A stretch of DNA of 64,000 nt from Spirochaetia bacterium (lineage in GTDB: Bacteria; Spirochaetota; Spirochaetia; UBA9216). Location of the stretch: the NCBI GenBank assembly GCA_965140585.1, contig OZ223270.1, positions 448,001 to 512,000 of the forward strand, read 5' to 3'. The position numbers and the translations under genes are program-made. The notes under the pieces are model-generated. The model was not told where the DNA came from. It ran no database searches and was given only the letters and a program-made list of their open reading frames with translations. The first letter of the stretch is position 1; every line of letters starts with the position of its first letter. Positions 29,494 through 36,497 of the stretch are shown piece by piece.

Positions 29494-31518
29494 TTATTCA
29501 CCACCCTGAATGACCTGGCCGCGGAAAACCTTTTTTACAGCATCAACATGTTCCTGATGATCCTGTCCGCTTTCCTCGTCGCGGTTGATCTTTACTACTT
29601 CAACCTCGATCTGGTATGACCTTCCGGTCTGTTCATTAATTATTTCGTTTATAACCTGTCTGTCGTTCTTTACGACCGAGGCTGTATATCCGTTTTCAAA
29701 ACTCAAACAGAGTTTTCCGCCGTTAACGGTCCATCTCACCGACTGTTCTACCGCAGCAGCAAGTGTCAGCTTTCGCTTTCTGATGCCTTCAAGAATACGG
29801 CTCTTCTCATCAGAGCTGAATCCTCCGCTGCTTCCGGCCACTGTTGATTGAACAACAGCTGATGTCGGTTCCGGTGAGGCATAAGCCGGAGCTGCTTGTG
29901 CAGGAGCTGCGGGCATTGACGTTGGCGCTGCAGAGGGTGCTGCTTTTGCAGGAGCCGCTGCCTGAGCAGGAGGCTCAGAGACAGGCGGATCATCCACAAA
30001 TCTTTCGTAGTAATCCTCATCCTCTTCATCATCGTCATAATCATCCGGATCAAAGGCCCCGCTTACAGCCGGCTTCTGCACAGGAGGAACCTGTGATTGA
30101 ACTGAGGGCTGCTGAGACTGTGCCGGAGCCTGTCCGAACGGCTGAGCCTGGGGTTCAGGCCGTCCAAGCTTAACCGCAGGAGCTTCATCCTTAAGCTGAG
30201 GCGCATACTGTTCCGCATTCTCCTGTACCTGAAGCTGCACCGGCTGTGCGGGTGCTGAAGGTGCTGCTGCTGCCGGAGCAACCGGCCTTTCAACCTGAAC
30301 CTGTGCCTGTACAGGAGCAGAAGGCTGAGCTACAGATTGAACAGCAGAAACTGAAACAGGAACGGCCTTTGCACCTGAAATAGCGCTGCTTTTCAAGGCT
30401 TCAAGCCTGTCGTATATCTCTGCCGGAGAAATCCATGTACTTATGTCTGAAAGAAGACTCAGAAGCAGCTCGAGCTCAAAGCGTTCGTTAAGCGAATAGC
30501 GGACATCCCTGTAAAACTTAAAAATTAGCTCAAGAGCCTTTTCAAGCTGGGGGCGGGAAAAAGTTCTTACCGCAGTATCAGAATATCTGGCCTTTGCATA
30601 GCCCAGCAGAGCCTCGCTGTCTGCACCGCTTTTGATAAAAAGCAGGCTTCTAAAGTATTCGGCAAGGTCTACAGCAAACTGCTCTACCGAAACTCCGCCG
30701 GCGATAATCTCCGAACAGAGTCTTATTACTTCCGCGGCATTCCTGCCGGCCATGGCCTCGGCAATTGTATTCATACTGTCCAGGCCGACCAGGCCCAGTT
30801 TCTCACGTATTATCTCAAGGTTGATATTTCCATCTGAAAAGGCTACAACCTGGTCAAAAAGCGTATAAGCATCACGCATCGAACCGGTAGCTTCCTTTGC
30901 TATCCAGAACAGCGCATCCTCTTCCGCAGCGACATTCATTTCGCGGCAGGCATCAGAAAGGCTGTTTTTAATCCTCTCCAGCCCAATCAGCCTGAAATTA
31001 AACTGCTGACAGCGTGAACGGATTGTTGCGGGAACCTTGTGAATCTCGGTTGTCGCAAAGATAAAGATGATATATGGAGGCGGCTCTTCGATAGTTTTCA
31101 AAAGCGCGTTAAATGCGCTGTTTGAAAGCATGTGAACCTCATCAATGATGTAAACCTTGTAGCGGCATGAATTCGGCGCAAAAAGCACCTCGTCCTTGAT
31201 TTCACGGATATCGTTTACCGAAGTATTTGATGCTCCGTCAATCTCAATCACATCAAGGGCATTTCCCTTTGCTATCTCGGTACAGTTGCTGCAGACTCCG
31301 CAGGGTTCGGGTATCGGACCGTTTTCACAGTTGACCGCTTTGGCAAGAATTCTTGCTGCGGATGTTTTTCCGACGCCGCGTGGGCCTGAAAAAAGATAGG
31401 CGTGGGCAATCCTGCCTGCCTTAATCGAGTTCTTAATAGTTGAAACTACAAATTCCTGTCCGACCAGCTCTTCAAAGCCGGACGGACGACGTCTTGATGC
31501 GGTTACTTCATATGCCAT
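29494..31518 (-). CDS. dnaX: DNA polymerase III gamma/tau subunit
   Basis: HAYLFSGPRGVGKT, EIDGASN, DEVHML, SRC. Confidence 0.97.
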   Translation of the reverse strand: MAYEVTASRRRPSGFEELVGQEFVVSTIKNSIKAGRIAHAYLFSGPRGVGKTSAARILAKAVNCENGPIPEPCGVCSNCTEIAKGNALDVIEIDGASNTSVNDIREIKDEVLFAPNSCRYKVYIIDEVHMLSNSAFNALLKTIEEPPPYIIFIFATTEIHKVPATIRSRCQQFNFRLIGLERIKNSLSDACREMNVAAEEDALFWIAKEATGSMRDAYTLFDQVVAFSDGNINLEIIREKLGLVGLDSMNTIAEAMAGRNAAEVIRLCSEIIAGGVSVEQFAVDLAEYFRSLLFIKSGADSEALLGYAKARYSDTAVRTFSRPQLEKALELIFKFYRDVRYSLNERFELELLLSLLSDISTWISPAEIYDRLEALKSSAISGAKAVPVSVSAVQSVAQPSAPVQAQVQVERPVAPAAAAPSAPAQPVQLQVQENAEQYAPQLKDEAPAVKLGRPEPQAQPFGQAPAQSQQPSVQSQVPPVQKPAVSGAFDPDDYDDDEEDEDYYERFVDDPPVSEPPAQAAAPAKAAPSAAPTSMPAAPAQAAPAYASPEPTSAVVQSTVAGSSGGFSSDEKSRILEGIRKRKLTLAAAVEQSVRWTVNGGKLCLSFENGYTASVVKNDRQVINEIINEQTGRSYQIEVEVVKINRDEESGQDHQEHVDAVKKVFRGQVIQGGE

Positions 31519-31590
31519 ACGCGAAAATTGTATATGATAATCGGGCCGTTATCAAGCTCGGAGTTGATCAGGATTCGGGCGTATCTGTGT

Positions 31591-32541
31591 TTATGCGGGT
31601 TTTACCGGGATGCAGATATCGAATATATGCTTCCCTTCGGGGTGTTCATTCGGATCATTTTTTGAGAGTTCGTAGCTCAGACCGTCAGCAGCTTCATAGC
31701 CGCTGTCAGGAAGCCAGTCAGCACAAACCCAGTTCCAGGCATCACCGTACTGATCAACATCAATCTCAAACTCTACCATCGCATACTTTCCGGCAGGCAT
31801 AATCATCTTGCCAACCTCACCGCTGACCTCCGTATCAGGAGGTACAGTCAGGCAGACACTGGTTCGCAGCTTTGTTTCATCGGTAAGATTCGGATCATCA
31901 TGGTAAACACTCATAACCTTTGTATCCGGAAAATTAAGCAGCTCCCGCGCTCCGGCCCATCTGAAAAGTTTATCATACAAACCGGCAAATAAAGCCTCAT
32001 CCCCGGCATAGGGCCCGATATAACGCACATAGGCTACCGTCATATCCTCAACATTTTCTACTCTGACATTTCTGCCTTCTACTTTCATTCGGTTCCTCCG
32101 TTCATCAATAATCTTATGATCAAGATGATACGGCTTTGAGCCTGCCCCAGCTTCACAATCCTTGCCCAGCGTTTGTTCAATCTTGCTGTCTATTTTGCAA
32201 TCCTTGCTGAGCAGACTTAAACGCCAGTCTGTTGCTGACTGCCCGTAATGATCACGGAAGCTTCTTGCAAAAACTGATGATGAACTGAAACCGCAGTCCA
32301 GTGCAATTTCAGTGATATTTTTCTCTGTACCGGCAAGCATCCGGGCAGCCTTTTCCAGCCTCAGTCTTTTAATAAAAACATTAAGAGGCTCCCCCATGAA
32401 GGCTGTGAATATCCTGTGGAAATGATAAGGTGAAAACAAAGCGACAGCCGCCAGTTGCTCAAGCTTCAGCTCCTCATCGAGGTGTGAATCTATATAGTCT
32501 ATTACTCTGTTTATACGTTGTATGTAATCCTTACTGCTCAC
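31591..32541 (-). CDS. AraC family regulator with C-terminal GyrI-like effector domain
   Basis: N-terminal FSPYHFHRIF..RLRLEKAA..IALDCGF; C-terminal YHDDP..T....LR, GKYA, WLPDSGY, ICIPV. Confidence 0.93.
   Translation of the reverse strand: MSSKDYIQRINRVIDYIDSHLDEELKLEQLAAVALFSPYHFHRIFTAFMGEPLNVFIKRLRLEKAARMLAGTEKNITEIALDCGFSSSSVFARSFRDHYGQSATDWRLSLLSKDCKIDSKIEQTLGKDCEAGAGSKPYHLDHKIIDERRNRMKVEGRNVRVENVEDMTVAYVRYIGPYAGDEALFAGLYDKLFRWAGARELLNFPDTKVMSVYHDDPNLTDETKLRTSVCLTVPPDTEVSGEVGKMIMPAGKYAMVEFEIDVDQYGDAWNWVCADWLPDSGYEAADGLSYELSKNDPNEHPEGKHIFDICIPVKPA
32088..32208 (-). promoter_or_regulatory. Candidate intragenic AraC-activated promoter with RBS and in-frame start
   Basis: GCAAG(G)ATTG repeats starting at 32207, 32186 and 32165 (21-bp period); -10 TATCAT 32130-32125; GGAGG 32099-32095; ATG 32088 (Met152). 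Confidence 0.6.
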
Positions 32542-32932
32542 AGCGCTCCAGCCACTTTTTCACTTTTTCCCTGAACTCTCCGATTAAAAGTTCGAAATCA
32601 GGCTCTTCTGTTCCAGCCCAACGGAACTCAACATGTTCATCAGAAAGGTTAATATCGAAATTTTCTGTACTGCATTTATAAATAATTCCGGTGATGTGCC
32701 AGTTATCAAGAAAGACATTCCAGGTATCAACAAGAACCTCCGGGACAATTTTCATTCCGGTCTCTTCAAATACTTCCCGTATTACTGCCTGTTCGGCTGT
32801 CTCTCCGAATTCAAGATGTCCGCCCGGTAATTCCCAGACCGTGTTCCGTTCGGTATTGCGCCGAAGAATCAGAACATGGCCGTCAGGATCCTGAATTAAT
32901 GCTTTAATTGAAAAAGTTATTCTCCTTCCCAA
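32531..32932 (-). CDS. NUDIX hydrolase
   Basis: Nudix box GGHLEFGETAEQAVIREVFEETG; AGGAG RBS before TTG at 32932. Confidence 0.9.
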   Translation of the reverse strand: MGRRITFSIKALIQDPDGHVLILRRNTERNTVWELPGGHLEFGETAEQAVIREVFEETGMKIVPEVLVDTWNVFLDNWHITGIIYKCSTENFDINLSDEHVEFRWAGTEEPDFELLIGEFREKVKKWLERCEQ

Positions 32933-33003
32933 AACGTTTTTCTCCTGATTTTTTCTGGTTAAACAGTGTATCAGCAGATTCAAGATTTGAAAACTTTTAT
33001 TGA

Positions 33004-33699
33004 TTAGAAAGCGAAACTGCCTCCGATGCCGCAGGCTATTCCGCGCATCATCAGATAAGCATCGGCTGACTCAATCGTTTTAGCAGCGGTAAGTCCCGTT
33101 GAAGGTCCAGTAAGATAGGATGCAGTCAATGTAAGCGGATTATAAATATCCCTGTACTCTGCAAACAGATTAACAGTTACCTGTTTAATCTTTATACCAA
33201 GCGATCCTCCGGCAAGCCATCCGTAACCGAAGGGTGCACTGGCCGAAAACTCGGTAAAGCCGGCGTATTCATCCGCCGCCGCAACATCGTCTGCAGCCCA
33301 GCCTTCAAGCGGTGTAAGGGTAGCATTCCAGCTTCCGGCGCCTCCGCCGAATGCCTTAAGAACAACCGGGCCCATTTCTACTTTAAGCTGCAGCTTGATA
33401 TATGCCAGGAAGTTATCGGCAATAAACCAGGGCTTTGAAGGCGATACCGCATTCCCGTCGACGGAAGCGCCCTCCACCATATAACCGTGAAATTTACAGT
33501 AATCAAAACCTACCGGAATTTCAAGAAACTTTCCAAGCCCCAAAGAGGTACTTAGACCTGAGGTTAATGCTACAGCTCCATCATCATACAGGTACAGACT
33601 TTCCGGCACAAATACCGAAATCTTGGTTCCCGCTTCCTCAGCAAAAACAGTACCGCCCAGAATAAGAACCGAAAAAACTAAAACAGTAATTTTTTTCAT
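33004..33699 (-). CDS. Secreted protein, probable outer-membrane beta-barrel
   Basis: Signal peptide ending VFA; amphipathic strands; C-terminal Phe (GGSFAF). Confidence 0.6.
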   Translation of the reverse strand: MKKITVLVFSVLILGGTVFAEEAGTKISVFVPESLYLYDDGAVALTSGLSTSLGLGKFLEIPVGFDYCKFHGYMVEGASVDGNAVSPSKPWFIADNFLAYIKLQLKVEMGPVVLKAFGGGAGSWNATLTPLEGWAADDVAAADEYAGFTEFSASAPFGYGWLAGGSLGIKIKQVTVNLFAEYRDIYNPLTLTASYLTGPSTGLTAAKTIESADAYLMMRGIACGIGGSFAF

Positions 33700-33775
33700 A
33701 AATTTTCTCCTACAGTAACCTAAGTATAGTTAACCGTAGAAGCAAAGCAAGCGGTAAAATACGCATTTAGAAACC

Positions 33776-33818
33776 TGTGGATAACCTGTGGATAAATTAT
33801 GGAAATACATGTGAATAA
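33776..33818. promoter_or_regulatory. DnaA-box cluster outside oriC
   Basis: TGTGGATAA at 33776 and 33787, degenerate TATGGAAAT at 33798, TGTGAATAA at 33810. Confidence 0.75.
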
Positions 33819-33957
33819 AATTCTTCAAAATACAGTACCAAAGCCTCGAGGCTCTTATCAAACCTTGTAAATATTGAAGGCATATTGGAGAGAGCCGAAG
33901 GCTCGAATCAACGAGCCGCCTGAGAAGTCTTTCTAATATGCCTTTGGTATAAAAAAA

Positions 33958-34059
33958 CGCCGCCAAGCTTACTGCGGCTCAGTAAAACACCACTGACCGC
34001 TGCTTCCTTCCGGACCTGACGGGGTTGGGTAGTGCATACTAGCACAGGGCCTGACGGCG
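33958..34059 (-). ncRNA. ffs: Signal recognition particle (4.5S) RNA
   Basis: Conserved domain IV TCAGGTCCGGAAGGAAGCAGC within a long hairpin; T tract follows. Confidence 0.95.
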
Positions 34060-34065
34060 AATAAA

Positions 34066-34150
34066 CGGAGAGAGGGGGATTCGAACCCCCGGTACCTTTC
34101 GATACACACGCTTTCCAAGCGTGCGCCTTCGACCGCTCGGCCATCTCTCC
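34066..34150 (-). tRNA. tRNA-Ser(GGA)
   Basis: Cloverleaf with long variable arm; CACGC-TT-GGA-AA-GCGTG. Confidence 0.96.
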
Positions 34151-34187
34151 AGATGTGAAATATTGATGTTTCTCCGAGTCCTAGCTT

Positions 34188-34274
34188 CGGAGAGAGAGGG
34201 ATTCGAACCCTCGGTACAGCAAGCTGTACAACGGCTTTCGAGGCCGCCCGATTCAACCACTCTCGCATCTCTCC
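34188..34274 (-). tRNA. tRNA-Ser(CGA)
   Basis: GCGGC-CT-CGA-AA-GCCGT; long variable arm. Confidence 0.96.
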
Positions 34275-34388
34275 CAGATGACTGCAAAAAACTCTGCATA
34301 TCACTGTGGTTGAGTTTTTTAGGAAAACTATGTTTTCATAAAAAATCTCAAAAAACAAAATTATTCCGTCAGGAATAATTTTGTTTAG

Positions 34389-34462
34389 TATACCCAAGAG
34401 GACTCGAACCTCCGACCTTTAGGTCCGCAACCTAACGCTCTATCCAGCTGAGCTATGGGTAC
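34389..34462 (-). tRNA. tRNA-Arg(GCG)
   Basis: TTAGG-TT-GCG-GA-CCTAA; TAGCTCAG and GGTTCGAGTCC arms. Confidence 0.95.
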
Positions 34463-34557
34463 ATGGGAATAAGAAATCTGAGATTTCTTATTCTGAAATA
34501 TTCAACAAAGTCGAATACTTCATGATTTATATTTAACTGATTTAACAGTAAAAAAAA

Positions 34558-34644
34558 CGGAGAGGGAGGGATTCGAACCCTCGGTACCGTTACCAGTACA
34601 ACTCCTTAGCAGGGAGCCCGATTCAACCACTCTCGCACCTCTCC
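34558..34644 (-). tRNA. tRNA-Ser(GCT)
   Basis: GCTCC-CT-GCT-AA-GGAGT; long variable arm. Confidence 0.96.
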
Positions 34645-34673
34645 GAATGAAACCAGCCCTTGCGGGCAAAATA

Positions 34674-34758
34674 CGGAGAAGGTGGGATTCGAACCCACGG
34701 AACCTTGCGGCTCAACGGTTTTCAAGACCGCCTCCTTCGACCACTCGGACACCTCTCC
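34674..34758 (-). tRNA. tRNA-Ser(TGA)
   Basis: GCGGT-CT-TGA-AA-ACCGT; long variable arm. Confidence 0.96.
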
Positions 34759-34784
34759 ATATTACAATAATTGTCGTGGGGTCT

Positions 34785-34813
34785 AATATATGAATCAATG
34801 GCAGTTTTGTCAA
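34785..34813 (-). promoter_or_regulatory. Sigma70 promoter of the tRNA/ffs operon
   Basis: TTGACA-17-TATATT. Confidence 0.75.
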
Positions 34814-34993
34814 TATTGATAAAGGTAAAAACAATAGGATACAGAAATTATAAGCCTAAACTATAATTCATTTTGAACACGAAAATCCGGAAAGAAAATA
34901 TTAGACGTTTTTTACAGCTAACCTAAAACAATGTTATAATATGAAGCCTATCCAATATAATAATCAGAATTTTATAATAAACAGGAGAAAAAA

Positions 34994-35575
34994 ATGAGTA
35001 GAATTAAAAAATTATTTTTTGTAGGCATGCTGATAGTAATATTGGCATCATGTGAACAGATGGTAGCAATCCCATGGTTAATGAATCCTGAAATTGTTGA
35101 TACTGTTACTATTTATAATACTGTCGTATACAACCTTGATGATATCAGCTTATTTAGAATCGATTACGATTCCGAATTTGCCCAAACCGTCGATACAACA
35201 ATTAATTTATCCTCAGAAGAAAGTTTAATCCCATTTGAATATACTGTATCTGTTAACTATTCAGATATTGAAGCAATAAATATTACCCAGCAAGATAAAT
35301 GCTATACAGATGATGATGGAAATTATGCTTGGAGCATAAGTGCAGATGTTAGTTATGAGAAAAGCGATAGCTATTATCAACAGGAACTAATAGAAGAGCA
35401 CGATGTTAAAGGCTCATTTATGGTACATATAAACTTAACATCCCTTCAGGAATCTTGTTATTCAGCATTAGCAGGAGATCAATATATTATTTATATACCA
35501 GTTATTTTTACCGTAGATTGTGCAGGTATTATTGAGGAACAGGAGGTCTTTTGCCAAATTCCGTTAACTTATTAA
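34994..35575 (+). CDS. Hypothetical lipoprotein
   Basis: AGGAG RBS; basic N-region, hydrophobic stretch, lipobox LASC. Confidence 0.7.
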   Translation: MSRIKKLFFVGMLIVILASCEQMVAIPWLMNPEIVDTVTIYNTVVYNLDDISLFRIDYDSEFAQTVDTTINLSSEESLIPFEYTVSVNYSDIEAINITQQDKCYTDDDGNYAWSISADVSYEKSDSYYQQELIEEHDVKGSFMVHINLTSLQESCYSALAGDQYIIYIPVIFTVDCAGIIEEQEVFCQIPLTY

Positions 35576-35618
35576 TTTTAAATCAATAAAAATTCAGACA
35601 CGTTAAAAATTGAAAATT

Positions 35619-36497
35619 CTAATCGGTAAAAAGATCGAAGAGTCGTTCAAGATCTTCCATAGAATAATATGATATTTCGATCTTTCCCTGATTAAGGCTT
35701 CCGTTAATATTTATCTTGGTTCCGAGCCTGTCAATCAGTTTCTCTTTTATAACTTCCAGTTCAGGAATTCTTTTTGCAGTTCCGGAAGCCTTTGACTTTG
35801 ATGACTTCTTTCCAGATTCAGTGGCTCTCTGTCCTGCAAGTTTTTCAGCTTCTCTAACAGATAAACCTTCATCAAGTATTTTTTTGTGAAGTTCCGACAT
35901 CTGCTTTGAAGTGTTCATCGAAAGGATCGCCCGTGCATGTCCGGCAGATACTGTTCCCTGAACCAGGGAATTCTGCACTTCTTCCGGAAGCTTCAGAAGT
36001 CTCAGGCTGTTGGCTACAGTTGAACGCTTTTTCCCGACCTTCTCTGCAAGTTCTTCCTGATTGAGATTTTCTATATCCATCAGCTCTTTATATGCTATGG
36101 CCTCTTCAATCGGGTTCAGATCTTCACGCTGAATATTTTCAATCAGGGCAATTTCAAGTTTTTCATTGTTAGTATAATTTCTCTCAATTACAGGCATCTC
36201 TTTCAAACCGGCAATCTTTGAAGCACGGTAGCGTCTCTCACCTGCAATAATGATGAACCTGTCACCTGACTTTTCAACTATGATAGGCTGAATAACACCC
36301 TTGTCTTTAATAGAAACCGCTAACTCACTTAGGGCTTCCTCATCGAAGCTTTTTCTCGGCTGATCAGGATTTGGGATTATACTTTCTATAGAAACAATAG
36401 TAATTCCGGAGGATGAGTTTACAGATGAGTCAACACTTTCATCTGCTCCGCCCATAAGGGCACTTAAGCCGCTTCCGAGTGCAGGGCGCTTAGACAC
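35619..36497 (-). CDS. parB: Chromosome partition protein ParB
   Basis: PNPDQPRK.F, IAGERRYRA, ENIQREDLNPIEEA, HTH. Confidence 0.97.
   Translation of the reverse strand: MSKRPALGSGLSALMGGADESVDSSVNSSSGITIVSIESIIPNPDQPRKSFDEEALSELAVSIKDKGVIQPIIVEKSGDRFIIIAGERRYRASKIAGLKEMPVIERNYTNNEKLEIALIENIQREDLNPIEEAIAYKELMDIENLNQEELAEKVGKKRSTVANSLRLLKLPEEVQNSLVQGTVSAGHARAILSMNTSKQMSELHKKILDEGLSVREAEKLAGQRATESGKKSSKSKASGTAKRIPELEVIKEKLIDRLGTKININGSLNQGKIEISYYSMEDLERLFDLFTD

Follow-up and report, generated by a model that had tools for sequence, protein, structure and literature searches.

Domain architecture and linker signals of an AraC-type regulator gene

The stretch of DNA analysed here (the window; 64,000 nucleotides of contig OZ223270.1 from a Spirochaetia bacterium, positions 448,001 to 512,000) carries on its minus strand a gene for a regulator in which an AraC-type helix-turn-helix (HTH) DNA-binding domain is connected by a linker to a GyrI-like domain. 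An earlier reading based on the letters of the DNA alone (the sequence-only reading) had proposed that the linker DNA contains an internal promoter with three direct repeats as activator sites, followed by a translation start from which the GyrI-like half is made as a separate protein. We followed up this proposal by comparing the linker DNA with that of homologous genes. The features concerned are the following.

31591..32541, minus strand: full-length regulator gene, 316 aa, GTG start, encoding AraC-type HTH, linker and GyrI-like domain (open reading frame (ORF) list and Pfam)
32221..32454, minus strand: coding region of the two-HTH DNA-binding domain, residues 30-107 (Pfam, AlphaFold)
32190..32210, minus strand: candidate box 1 (distal), TCAGCAAGGATTGCAAAATAG, first base 80 nt ahead of the -10; scores 12.5 bits against a matrix from other species
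32169..32189, minus strand: candidate box 2 (middle), ACAGCAAGATTGAACAAACGC, first base 59 nt ahead of the -10; 18.0 bits, within the 6 best single sites of the genome (4.85 Mb)
32148..32168, minus strand: candidate box 3 (proximal), TGGGCAAGGATTGTGAAGCTG, first base 38 nt ahead of the -10, over the -35 region; 10.3 bits
32125..32130, minus strand: putative -10 element TATCAT, codons Tyr138-His139
32117..32121, minus strand: predicted transcription start zone, 4-8 nt past the -10, placed from the position of the -10
32095..32099, minus strand: putative Shine-Dalgarno (SD) sequence GGAGG, codons CGG-AGG, 6 nt 5' of the internal ATG, with conserved spacing and AGG use
32086..32088, minus strand: putative internal in-frame start ATG, Met152; Met at the domain boundary in 80/91 aligned homologues
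31591..32088, minus strand: predicted short product, a stand-alone GyrI-like protein of 165 aa (stop codon included)

Pfam identified the N-terminal half of the protein as HTH_18 (PF12833; residues 30-107, E 1.5e-20, 73.7 bits against a cut-off of 33.6) and HTH_AraC (PF00165; E 4.7e-16), the two-HTH arrangement of the AraC/XylS family. The C-terminal half (residues 158-314 of the long form) matched GyrI-like (PF06445; E 8.2e-36) over profile positions 2-155 of 155, a full-length match, and was also recognized by the Cass2 profile (E 2.3e-24). The closest solved structure was 7R3W (STM3175; E 5.6e-26), followed by RamA, SoxS, Rob and MarA; the GyrI-like half matched SbmC/GyrI (1JYH) with E 3e-6. 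Among the 89 homologues described below, R43 is invariant and R93 nearly invariant, so that the recognition-helix Arg pair of MarA/SoxS/Rob/RamA is kept. We take these two residues to contact DNA. Structure prediction by AlphaFold2 with the 89-sequence alignment gave a predicted local distance difference test (pLDDT) score of >90 for both domains and of <50 only for residues 114-152, which is exactly the segment from the first box to Met152.

All elements that the sequence-only reading had named in the linker were found at the positions given for them. The dinucleotide GC at 32207, 32186 and 32165 recurs with an exact 21-nt period. The exact 10-mer GCAAGGATTG has two copies in the window, both in the linker and 42 nt apart, and the middle repeat copy, AGCAAGATTG, is one base out of register inside its unit. 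AAGCTG, the hexamer in -35 position (32153-32148), matches TTGACA at 1 of 6 positions and is followed by a 17-nt spacer and TATCAT (32130-32125), which begins 18 bp past the last box. Six nucleotides (AACCGA) separate GGAGG (32099-32095) from the in-frame ATG (32088-32086), and the frame opened by this ATG is 165 aa long. Taken by itself, the window sequence provided weak evidence, with repeat and promoter features no better than chance. Allowing up to one mismatch, GCAAGGATTG had 6 matches compared to 4.75 ± 2.11 in shuffled sequences, not above chance, and six further short two-copy repeat families are present inside the same gene. The leader preceding the internal ATG is unstructured (z -0.48 relative to shuffles). 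A known RNA family was ruled out as the source of the linker signals: Rfam gave no match inside 31591-32541 at E-values up to 1, and the leader folds no better than shuffles.

Conservation of the linker signals at the nucleotide level

Homologues were collected from two sources, genomes of the same class (matches in 17/61 at E ≤1e-30) and a collection with one genome per species (at least 579 related stretches, of which the best 80 were taken). We dropped stretches in which only one domain matched (L024, L026, L027, L028, L032) and those that were partial or interrupted (L055, L105, L022, L063, L082). Alignment produced 91 rows, and removal of two duplicate DNA sequences left 89 distinct full-length homologues that are 32-94% identical to the window protein at the amino acid level. 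Among the taxa in their record labels are Spirochaetota, Bacteroidota, Neomarinimicrobiota, Ignavibacteria, Calditrichaeota, Chloroflexi, Firmicutes, Polyangiaceae, Thermoleophilia and Acetothermia. The alignment was anchored on a conserved linker Tyr (Y138 in the window).

At this Tyr, the pattern TAYNNT was present in 72/72 distinct homologues that have the residue, compared to 19.1 expected from gene-wide use of T at third positions. The final T is the third position of 13 different codons, encoding Phe, Ile, Val, Thr, Gly, Pro, Leu, His, Asn, Ser, Tyr or Asp. Because T is invariant at the third position across so many codons, TAYNNT appears to form a -10 core; in that frame, no sense codons other than those for Tyr begin with TA-. 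Relative to the -10, AGCAA recurs in the homologue linkers at -78, -57 and -36, GGAGG stands at +31 and ATG at +42; the distance from Tyr to ATG is 42 nt in 45/70 cases.

A similar pattern was observed in the boxes. The first box codon reads NGC in 71/72 and 69/72 homologues for the two proximal units. When this codon encodes Ser, it is AGC in 59/60 and 47/47 cases, compared to a background of 24%; when it encodes Arg it is always CGC, and when Gly always GGC. Box codon 5 is NAA, with 45 CAA versus 0 CAG and 16 AAA versus 1 AAG. At the translation signals, GGAGG occurs within 20 nt of the boundary ATG in 44/79 homologues, with N6 spacing in 42. The Arg codon located three codons 5' of the ATG is AGG in 43/50 cases (background 20%), and the codon before it is TGG, AGG or CGG, such that Trp-Arg and Arg-Arg are exchanged with GGAGG remaining constant. 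Of the 303 gene columns analysed, the four with the most third-position information belong to the linker, where the encoded amino acids vary.

Counted as strict strings, the 89 homologues contain the -10 in 72, the proximal box in 61, the middle box in 62, the third box in 26, the ATG in 70 and an SD of at least 4 nt in 57 cases. The strict full module of -10, two boxes and ATG is present in 54/89, the window gene among them, and the record labels of these 54 cover about ten phyla. The -35 zone shows no conservation among the homologues.

The sequence-only reading had named the presence of 21-bp-phased repeats, -10 and ribosome binding site with ATG at synonymous sites of homologues as the check on its proposal, and the NGC, NAA, TAYNNT and AGG counts bear it out. 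Conservation at the amino acid level only, which it had listed as speaking against the proposal, is not what we observed, the top four third positions being located in the linker. Since they are conserved in homologues, the signals are far above chance; it is this conservation, and not the window sequence, that rules out a chance origin. With high confidence, the pattern of codon use indicates that boxes, -10, SD and ATG are kept by selection on nucleotides rather than on the peptide.

Box consensus and promoter class

The tandem 21-bp units have the consensus ATAGCAAgaatgGTCAA, in short GCAA-N8-AA. A box matrix was built from the linkers of other species, leaving out the window genome and its twin, and the consensus from other species (ATAGCAAGAATGGTCAA) is likewise GCAA-N8-AA. 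Sites of the MarA/Rob/RamA group are described as GCAC-N8-AAA (PMC10268841), and TTT-7X-CGTG and CACT-7X-AAA have been given for MarA/Rob-group sites (PMC8811837). Class II sites of this group are in forward orientation over the -35 and centred between -36 and -55 (PMC12052159), with a centre of ~-41 for the micF site (PMC8811837), and agreement of class II promoters with the -35 consensus is limited to 3 positions at most (PMC10268841).

In forward orientation, the proximal box covers the positions 38 to 19 nt ahead of the -10, which would place its centre at ~-40 if transcription starts 7 nt past the -10. It thus shows the class II layout: a forward site over the -35 with its centre in the range of -36 to -55, a -10 and a poor -35. 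Judged by sequence and position, the individual 21-nt units resemble entire bipartite MarA/Rob-type sites placed as in class II promoters, and not half-sites. The sequence-only reading had described direct half-sites 21 bp apart, the proximal one overlapping the -35. Its period and placement hold, and complete sites seem a better description than half-sites. Its -10 proved to be conserved, and its '-35' plays no conserved part.

A Bacteroidota variant of the -10 element

In Bacteroidetes, the -7 promoter element recognized in sigma-ABfr promoters is described as TANNTTTG (PMC6847099). In 23 homologues, the linker Tyr is followed by Phe-Cys and the DNA reads TAYTTTTG, matching TANNTTTG. By label, 21 of these belong to Bacteroidota and one to Melioribacteraceae, and one is unlabelled; they are close kin and represent few independent events. 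This variant is absent from the window, which has TATCAT.

Bacteroidota are reported not to use SD sequences (PMC6847099). The Bacteroidota copies of the linker nevertheless keep TGGAGG-N6-ATG, and AAATGGAGGACnAAT-ATG is nearly invariant (for example in L088, L092 and L095). The Trp-Arg peptide may be constrained, the SD may really be used, or the genes may have been transferred recently.

The module outside coding DNA and in the genome of the window

Scanning the flanks of the homologues with the box matrix revealed the module outside coding DNA. In L097, a related AraC-GyrI gene ends with TAG and is followed by boxes at -80, -59 and -38, TATCCT, AAAGGAGG and the ATG of a separate GyrI-like gene. 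The module begins 17 nt past the regulator stop codon and represents its unfused state. The frame of the second gene is open back through the boxes, where it reads linker-like (RK-IGQPD-RK...). L029 has three boxes and TACAAT between the stop codon and a solute-binding-protein gene, and in L023 two boxes lie past the stop codon before the contig ends. Single boxes of 13-20 bits were found upstream of homologous regulator genes in L066, L084, L098, L100 and L103. Each of these starts exactly 38 nt before TAnnTTTG or TATTAT, and an element of the TANNTTTG type follows the upstream box in L066, L084, L098 and L103. L123 (G190:C80:4300-6100) is a stand-alone GyrI-like gene located after an unrelated gene, with 59% identity to the window domain; it keeps TATATT, TGGAGGAGG, ATG and a linker-like reading, YIDGTEYQKWRRYEM.

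In the 4.85-Mb genome of the window, the two best tandem box pairs are the linker's own, at 30.5 and 28.3 bits. The best single box (21.3 bits) is intergenic (C6:940527, minus strand; L119, 3954..3163, minus strand). It is followed at 18 bp by TAAAAT, AGGAG and the ATG of a 263-aa short-chain-dehydrogenase-like ORF, and the operon continues with a 219-aa membrane ORF and a 211-aa ORF. This operon may belong to the regulon of the window regulator or of a paralogue 3.6 kb away. The genome contains 26 AraC-type matches, including a second AraC-GyrI gene. This second gene, with AraC-type HTH and GyrI-like domains (C6:936012-936887, plus strand; L002; 313-aa frame), precedes a transporter-like ORF. 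S-K heptads and boxes are absent from the linker of this second gene, which has a Met where the GyrI-like domain starts (RLIMNPKIKVL).

Stand-alone relatives of the predicted short product

A search restricted to proteins of 90-289 aa yielded 72 relatives of the predicted 165-aa product, many of them gene calls of 161-168 aa that start at the equivalent Met. Many of these calls are on short contigs and may be truncated; some are on long contigs, one of 81 kb and one an 8.5-Mb chromosome where the source name is GyrI-like domain-containing protein. The Met at which stand-alone relatives start is the one preceded by the SD-N6 spacing conserved at the nucleotide level.

We also considered natural split genes. 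Single in-frame stops or truncations affect L082, L063, L055 and L105, whose sequences are otherwise intact; these look like pseudogenes or sequencing or assembly errors and are uninformative in this respect. L122, which ends at a contig edge, and L024, a truncated stand-alone piece without the module, were not usable either.

A proposed intragenic promoter for a short GyrI-like protein

Based on these comparisons, the linker DNA is likely to be an intragenic, activator-dependent class II promoter with its own SD and start codon, making a stand-alone GyrI-like protein of 165 aa. The linker-coding DNA would then also serve as a complete unit for expressing the second gene half. This unit would consist of three tandem 21-bp activator boxes, the proximal one 38 nt before the -10 and over the missing -35, and a leader of ~30 nt with GGAGG, followed 6 nt on by an in-frame ATG just ahead of the GyrI-like fold. 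In such a promoter of the MarA/Rob/RamA style, one two-HTH domain would occupy each box, with the centre of the proximal box near -40. Transcription from the linker promoter would give rise to the short protein, and ribosomes may in addition start at this internal ATG on the full-length mRNA, in the manner of TipA. The internal-promoter interpretation of the sequence-only reading is thus supported by the homologue sequences.

With lower confidence, the regulator that occupies the boxes is most likely the gene's own long product, since the boxes accompany this AraC-GyrI family in three arrangements across phyla and with differing neighbours. This would amount to a one-gene circuit, with a long form acting as sensor and activator and a short form that builds up. 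Judging from TipAS, AlbAS and the STM3175/YgiV domain as analogues, the short form may bind the inducing small molecule, thereby buffering or neutralizing it; we hold this sequestration, too, with lower confidence. Alternatively, the short form could act on the HTH domain in trans, or the bound activator could act as a roadblock for the long mRNA. Promoter activity, self-binding and ligand dependence are what we infer from the arrangement.

On balance, we favour a broader view in which the interdomain linker of this family is a captured promoter, not a protein feature. The peptide motifs of the linker (S-K/N-x-x-Q heptads, Tyr, W/R-R and Met) would be the translated shadow of boxes, -10, SD and start. 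As part of the same view, the regulator would bind its own ORF, switching from sensor to sponge and possibly blocking read-through of the long mRNA, and the promoter would have been re-tuned in each phylum, to TAnnnT in most and TAnnTTTG in Bacteroidota.

Several observations weigh against the intragenic promoter. The strict module is lacking in 35/89 homologues; 17/89 are without the Tyr and -10, 10/89 without the Met and 20/79 without an SD-like 4-mer. The homologues are mutually related, so that the counts overstate the number of independent events, and the Bacteroidales group is a tight cluster. The TGGAGG kept in Bacteroidota is at odds with the reported lack of SD use, and L123, which has lost the HTH half, has a -10 but no boxes. 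A scan of 31300-33900 for sigma-70 promoters gave 3 sites, compared to 3.9 ± 1.8 in shuffles, none of them at the proposed promoter. In the genome of the window, only 6/299 boxes of at least 12 bits have TAnnnT at 18 bp, which is about chance, and only the top match is telling. Boxes of at least 12 bits are only ~2-fold more frequent in the homologue flanks (6.5e-5) than in this genome (3.1e-5).

Alternative explanations would have to account for the same set of signals. The boxes could serve another regulator, such as a paralogous AraC-type protein, or the internal promoter could be constitutive, and the gene would then not control its own short form. The genome has the 26 AraC-type matches mentioned above, the second AraC-GyrI gene included, its best single box lies 3.6 kb from that paralogous gene, and L123 keeps -10, SD and ATG without boxes. 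Yet the boxes travel with this family, in the linker, upstream of the regulator and just past its stop codon, in many phyla and with differing neighbours, and the best tandem pairs of the genome are those of the linker. We therefore consider this explanation unlikely. Slightly less likely again is a TipA-like internal translation start without an internal promoter, where the short protein would be translated from the full-length mRNA at GGAGG-N6-ATG. The nucleotide-level conservation of SD and ATG and the unstructured leader are in line with such a mechanism, and TipAL and TipAS are described as products of two start codons of one gene (PMC7762955). It fails to explain the invariant sixth-position T of TAYNNT (72/72), the Bacteroidota-specific TAYTTTTG and the fixed distance of 38 nt from box to -10, which recurs in intergenic promoters.

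Tandem sites inside a transcribed region could also act as a roadblock. The boxes would then be an intragenic operator for negative autoregulation, where the protein, once bound, would stop its own mRNA from being elongated, and there would be no productive promoter. We regard this as very unlikely, as it leaves -10, SD and ATG unaccounted for and does not fit with L097 and L029, where the same module would drive separate genes. Finally, the module might be a relic of an old gene fusion or encode a functional linker peptide (the S-K/N-x-x-Q heptads), with DNA signals that have no present function. A fusion origin is plausible, given the unfused arrangement in L097, and the motif does look repeat-like in the peptide. 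Synonymous sites, however, should decay at 40-55% amino acid identity, but they are the most conserved third positions of the gene. Furthermore, the first box residue varies between Ser, Arg and Gly while NGC stays, and the linker is predicted to be disordered despite an alignment of 89 sequences. A relic or peptide thus has very little probability in our assessment.

If the intragenic promoter is real, the gene would represent a compact and widespread one-gene design that combines sensor, activator, target promoter and effector. Selection at the DNA level would explain why the linker is conserved yet 'disordered', providing a clear case of overlapping codes in bacteria. Annotation would be missing a small-molecule-binding protein of ~19 kDa in hundreds of genomes (at least 579 related stretches). 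The relatives STM3175 and YgiV bind albicidin, and hidden inducible sponges would accordingly bear on the tolerance of small toxic molecules. The module would also be a ready-made, portable and self-contained inducible part.

Surroundings of the regulator gene

A NUDIX-family gene lies directly upstream of the regulator on the same strand.

32531..32983, minus strand: NUDIX-family gene, its 3' end sharing 11 nt with the regulator start (Pfam NUDIX, E 7.6e-18)

The transcript of this gene probably supplies the long form. The NUDIX gene and a 231-aa ORF without a Pfam family recur as neighbours in the same genus only. Upstream of the NUDIX-regulator pair, no box of at least 8 bits was detected from 32542 to 36000. 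The region 33958-34462 (minus strand) contains, according to Rfam, the bacterial small signal recognition particle RNA (33958-34056) and three tRNAs (34066-34150, 34188-34274 and 34389-34462, minus strand), which makes the ORFs listed there spurious. This RNA cluster lies on one side of the regulator, the NUDIX gene and the 231-aa ORF; on the other, downstream side is a series of ORFs that we take from their sequence to resemble dnaX, ybaB and recR. In the 72-nt gap between the regulator stop codon and the next ORF, there is a good sigma-70-like site, TTGATA-17-TACAAT (31527-31555, minus strand). No terminator-like site was found after the regulator on the same strand, and transcripts from the internal promoter might therefore read on past its stop codon.

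Comparison with known systems

The sequence-only reading had known of no description of an internal promoter in AraC-GyrI fusions. In full-text searches of part of the literature, we likewise found no paper joining GyrI-like or AraC_E_bind domains with an internal promoter, start or isoform, and AraC and TipA go unmentioned in a 2026 review of bacterial N-terminal proteoforms.

The araI1-araI2 sites of AraC are direct repeats with a 21-bp period, the promoter-proximal one lying over the -35, as in the window. AraC binds as a dimer and has a different, sugar-binding N-terminal domain; the ara sites are unrelated in sequence and intergenic.

The DNA-binding domain of the window regulator is closest to the MarA/SoxS/Rob/RamA group, and the boxes resemble the sites of this group in sequence. 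The class II marboxes of this group (micF, lpxC P2) are bipartite 20-bp forward sites over a poor -35 with a centre near -41 (PMC12052159, PMC8811837, PMC10268841), much like the boxes described here. Their core is GCAC-N8-AAA rather than GCAA-N8-AA, and they occur as one site, compared to two or three in tandem at 21 bp. In contrast to marbox promoters, the proposed promoter in the window is wholly translated as the linker of its own activator.

STM3175 of Salmonella, YgiV of E. coli and Rob represent the AraC-HTH and GyrI-like architecture of the window regulator. Albicidin tolerance is increased by the isolated ligand-binding domain of STM3175 as well as by E. coli YgiV, and E. coli has a form that is naturally short, at 160 aa (PMC10414762). 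The main text of that paper does not contain the words isoform, internal or alternative start. The linker of STM3175 measures ~10 aa, unlike that of the window regulator. In the short linker of E. coli rob (L121), no box of at least 8 bits was detected, and the GyrI-like domain has a Met at its start (EFTMPEHK). The 160-aa ygiV of E. coli K-12 (L120, 3165000-3172000) begins 52 nt past ygiW, with no trace of an HTH half. Rob and STM3175 thus share the architecture of the window regulator but not the module.

The closest parallel in design is provided by TipAL/TipAS of Streptomyces lividans and AlbA/AlbAS, described as 'minimal autoregulated multidrug-resistance systems' of the MerR family (PMC7762955; bioRxiv 10.64898/2026.09.21.753095; PMC3048380). 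In these systems, as predicted for the window gene, a single gene gives rise to a long sensor and activator and to a short drug binder consisting of the ligand domain only. They differ in fold, MerR in place of AraC, and in ligand domain, TipAS-type in place of GyrI-like. Moreover, TipA and AlbA are described with two start codons and a regulated promoter upstream of the gene, whereas in the window gene the candidate activator sites and the -10 are inside the coding sequence. The TipA class combines a MerR-type HTH with a TipAS-type effector domain, and Pfam identified an AraC-type HTH and a GyrI-like domain here. Because the domains differ, the window gene is not a member of the TipA class and resembles it in logic only. 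If the proposed mechanism is correct, AraC-GyrI regulators would join TipA and AlbA on the short list of two-isoform drug-sensing systems.

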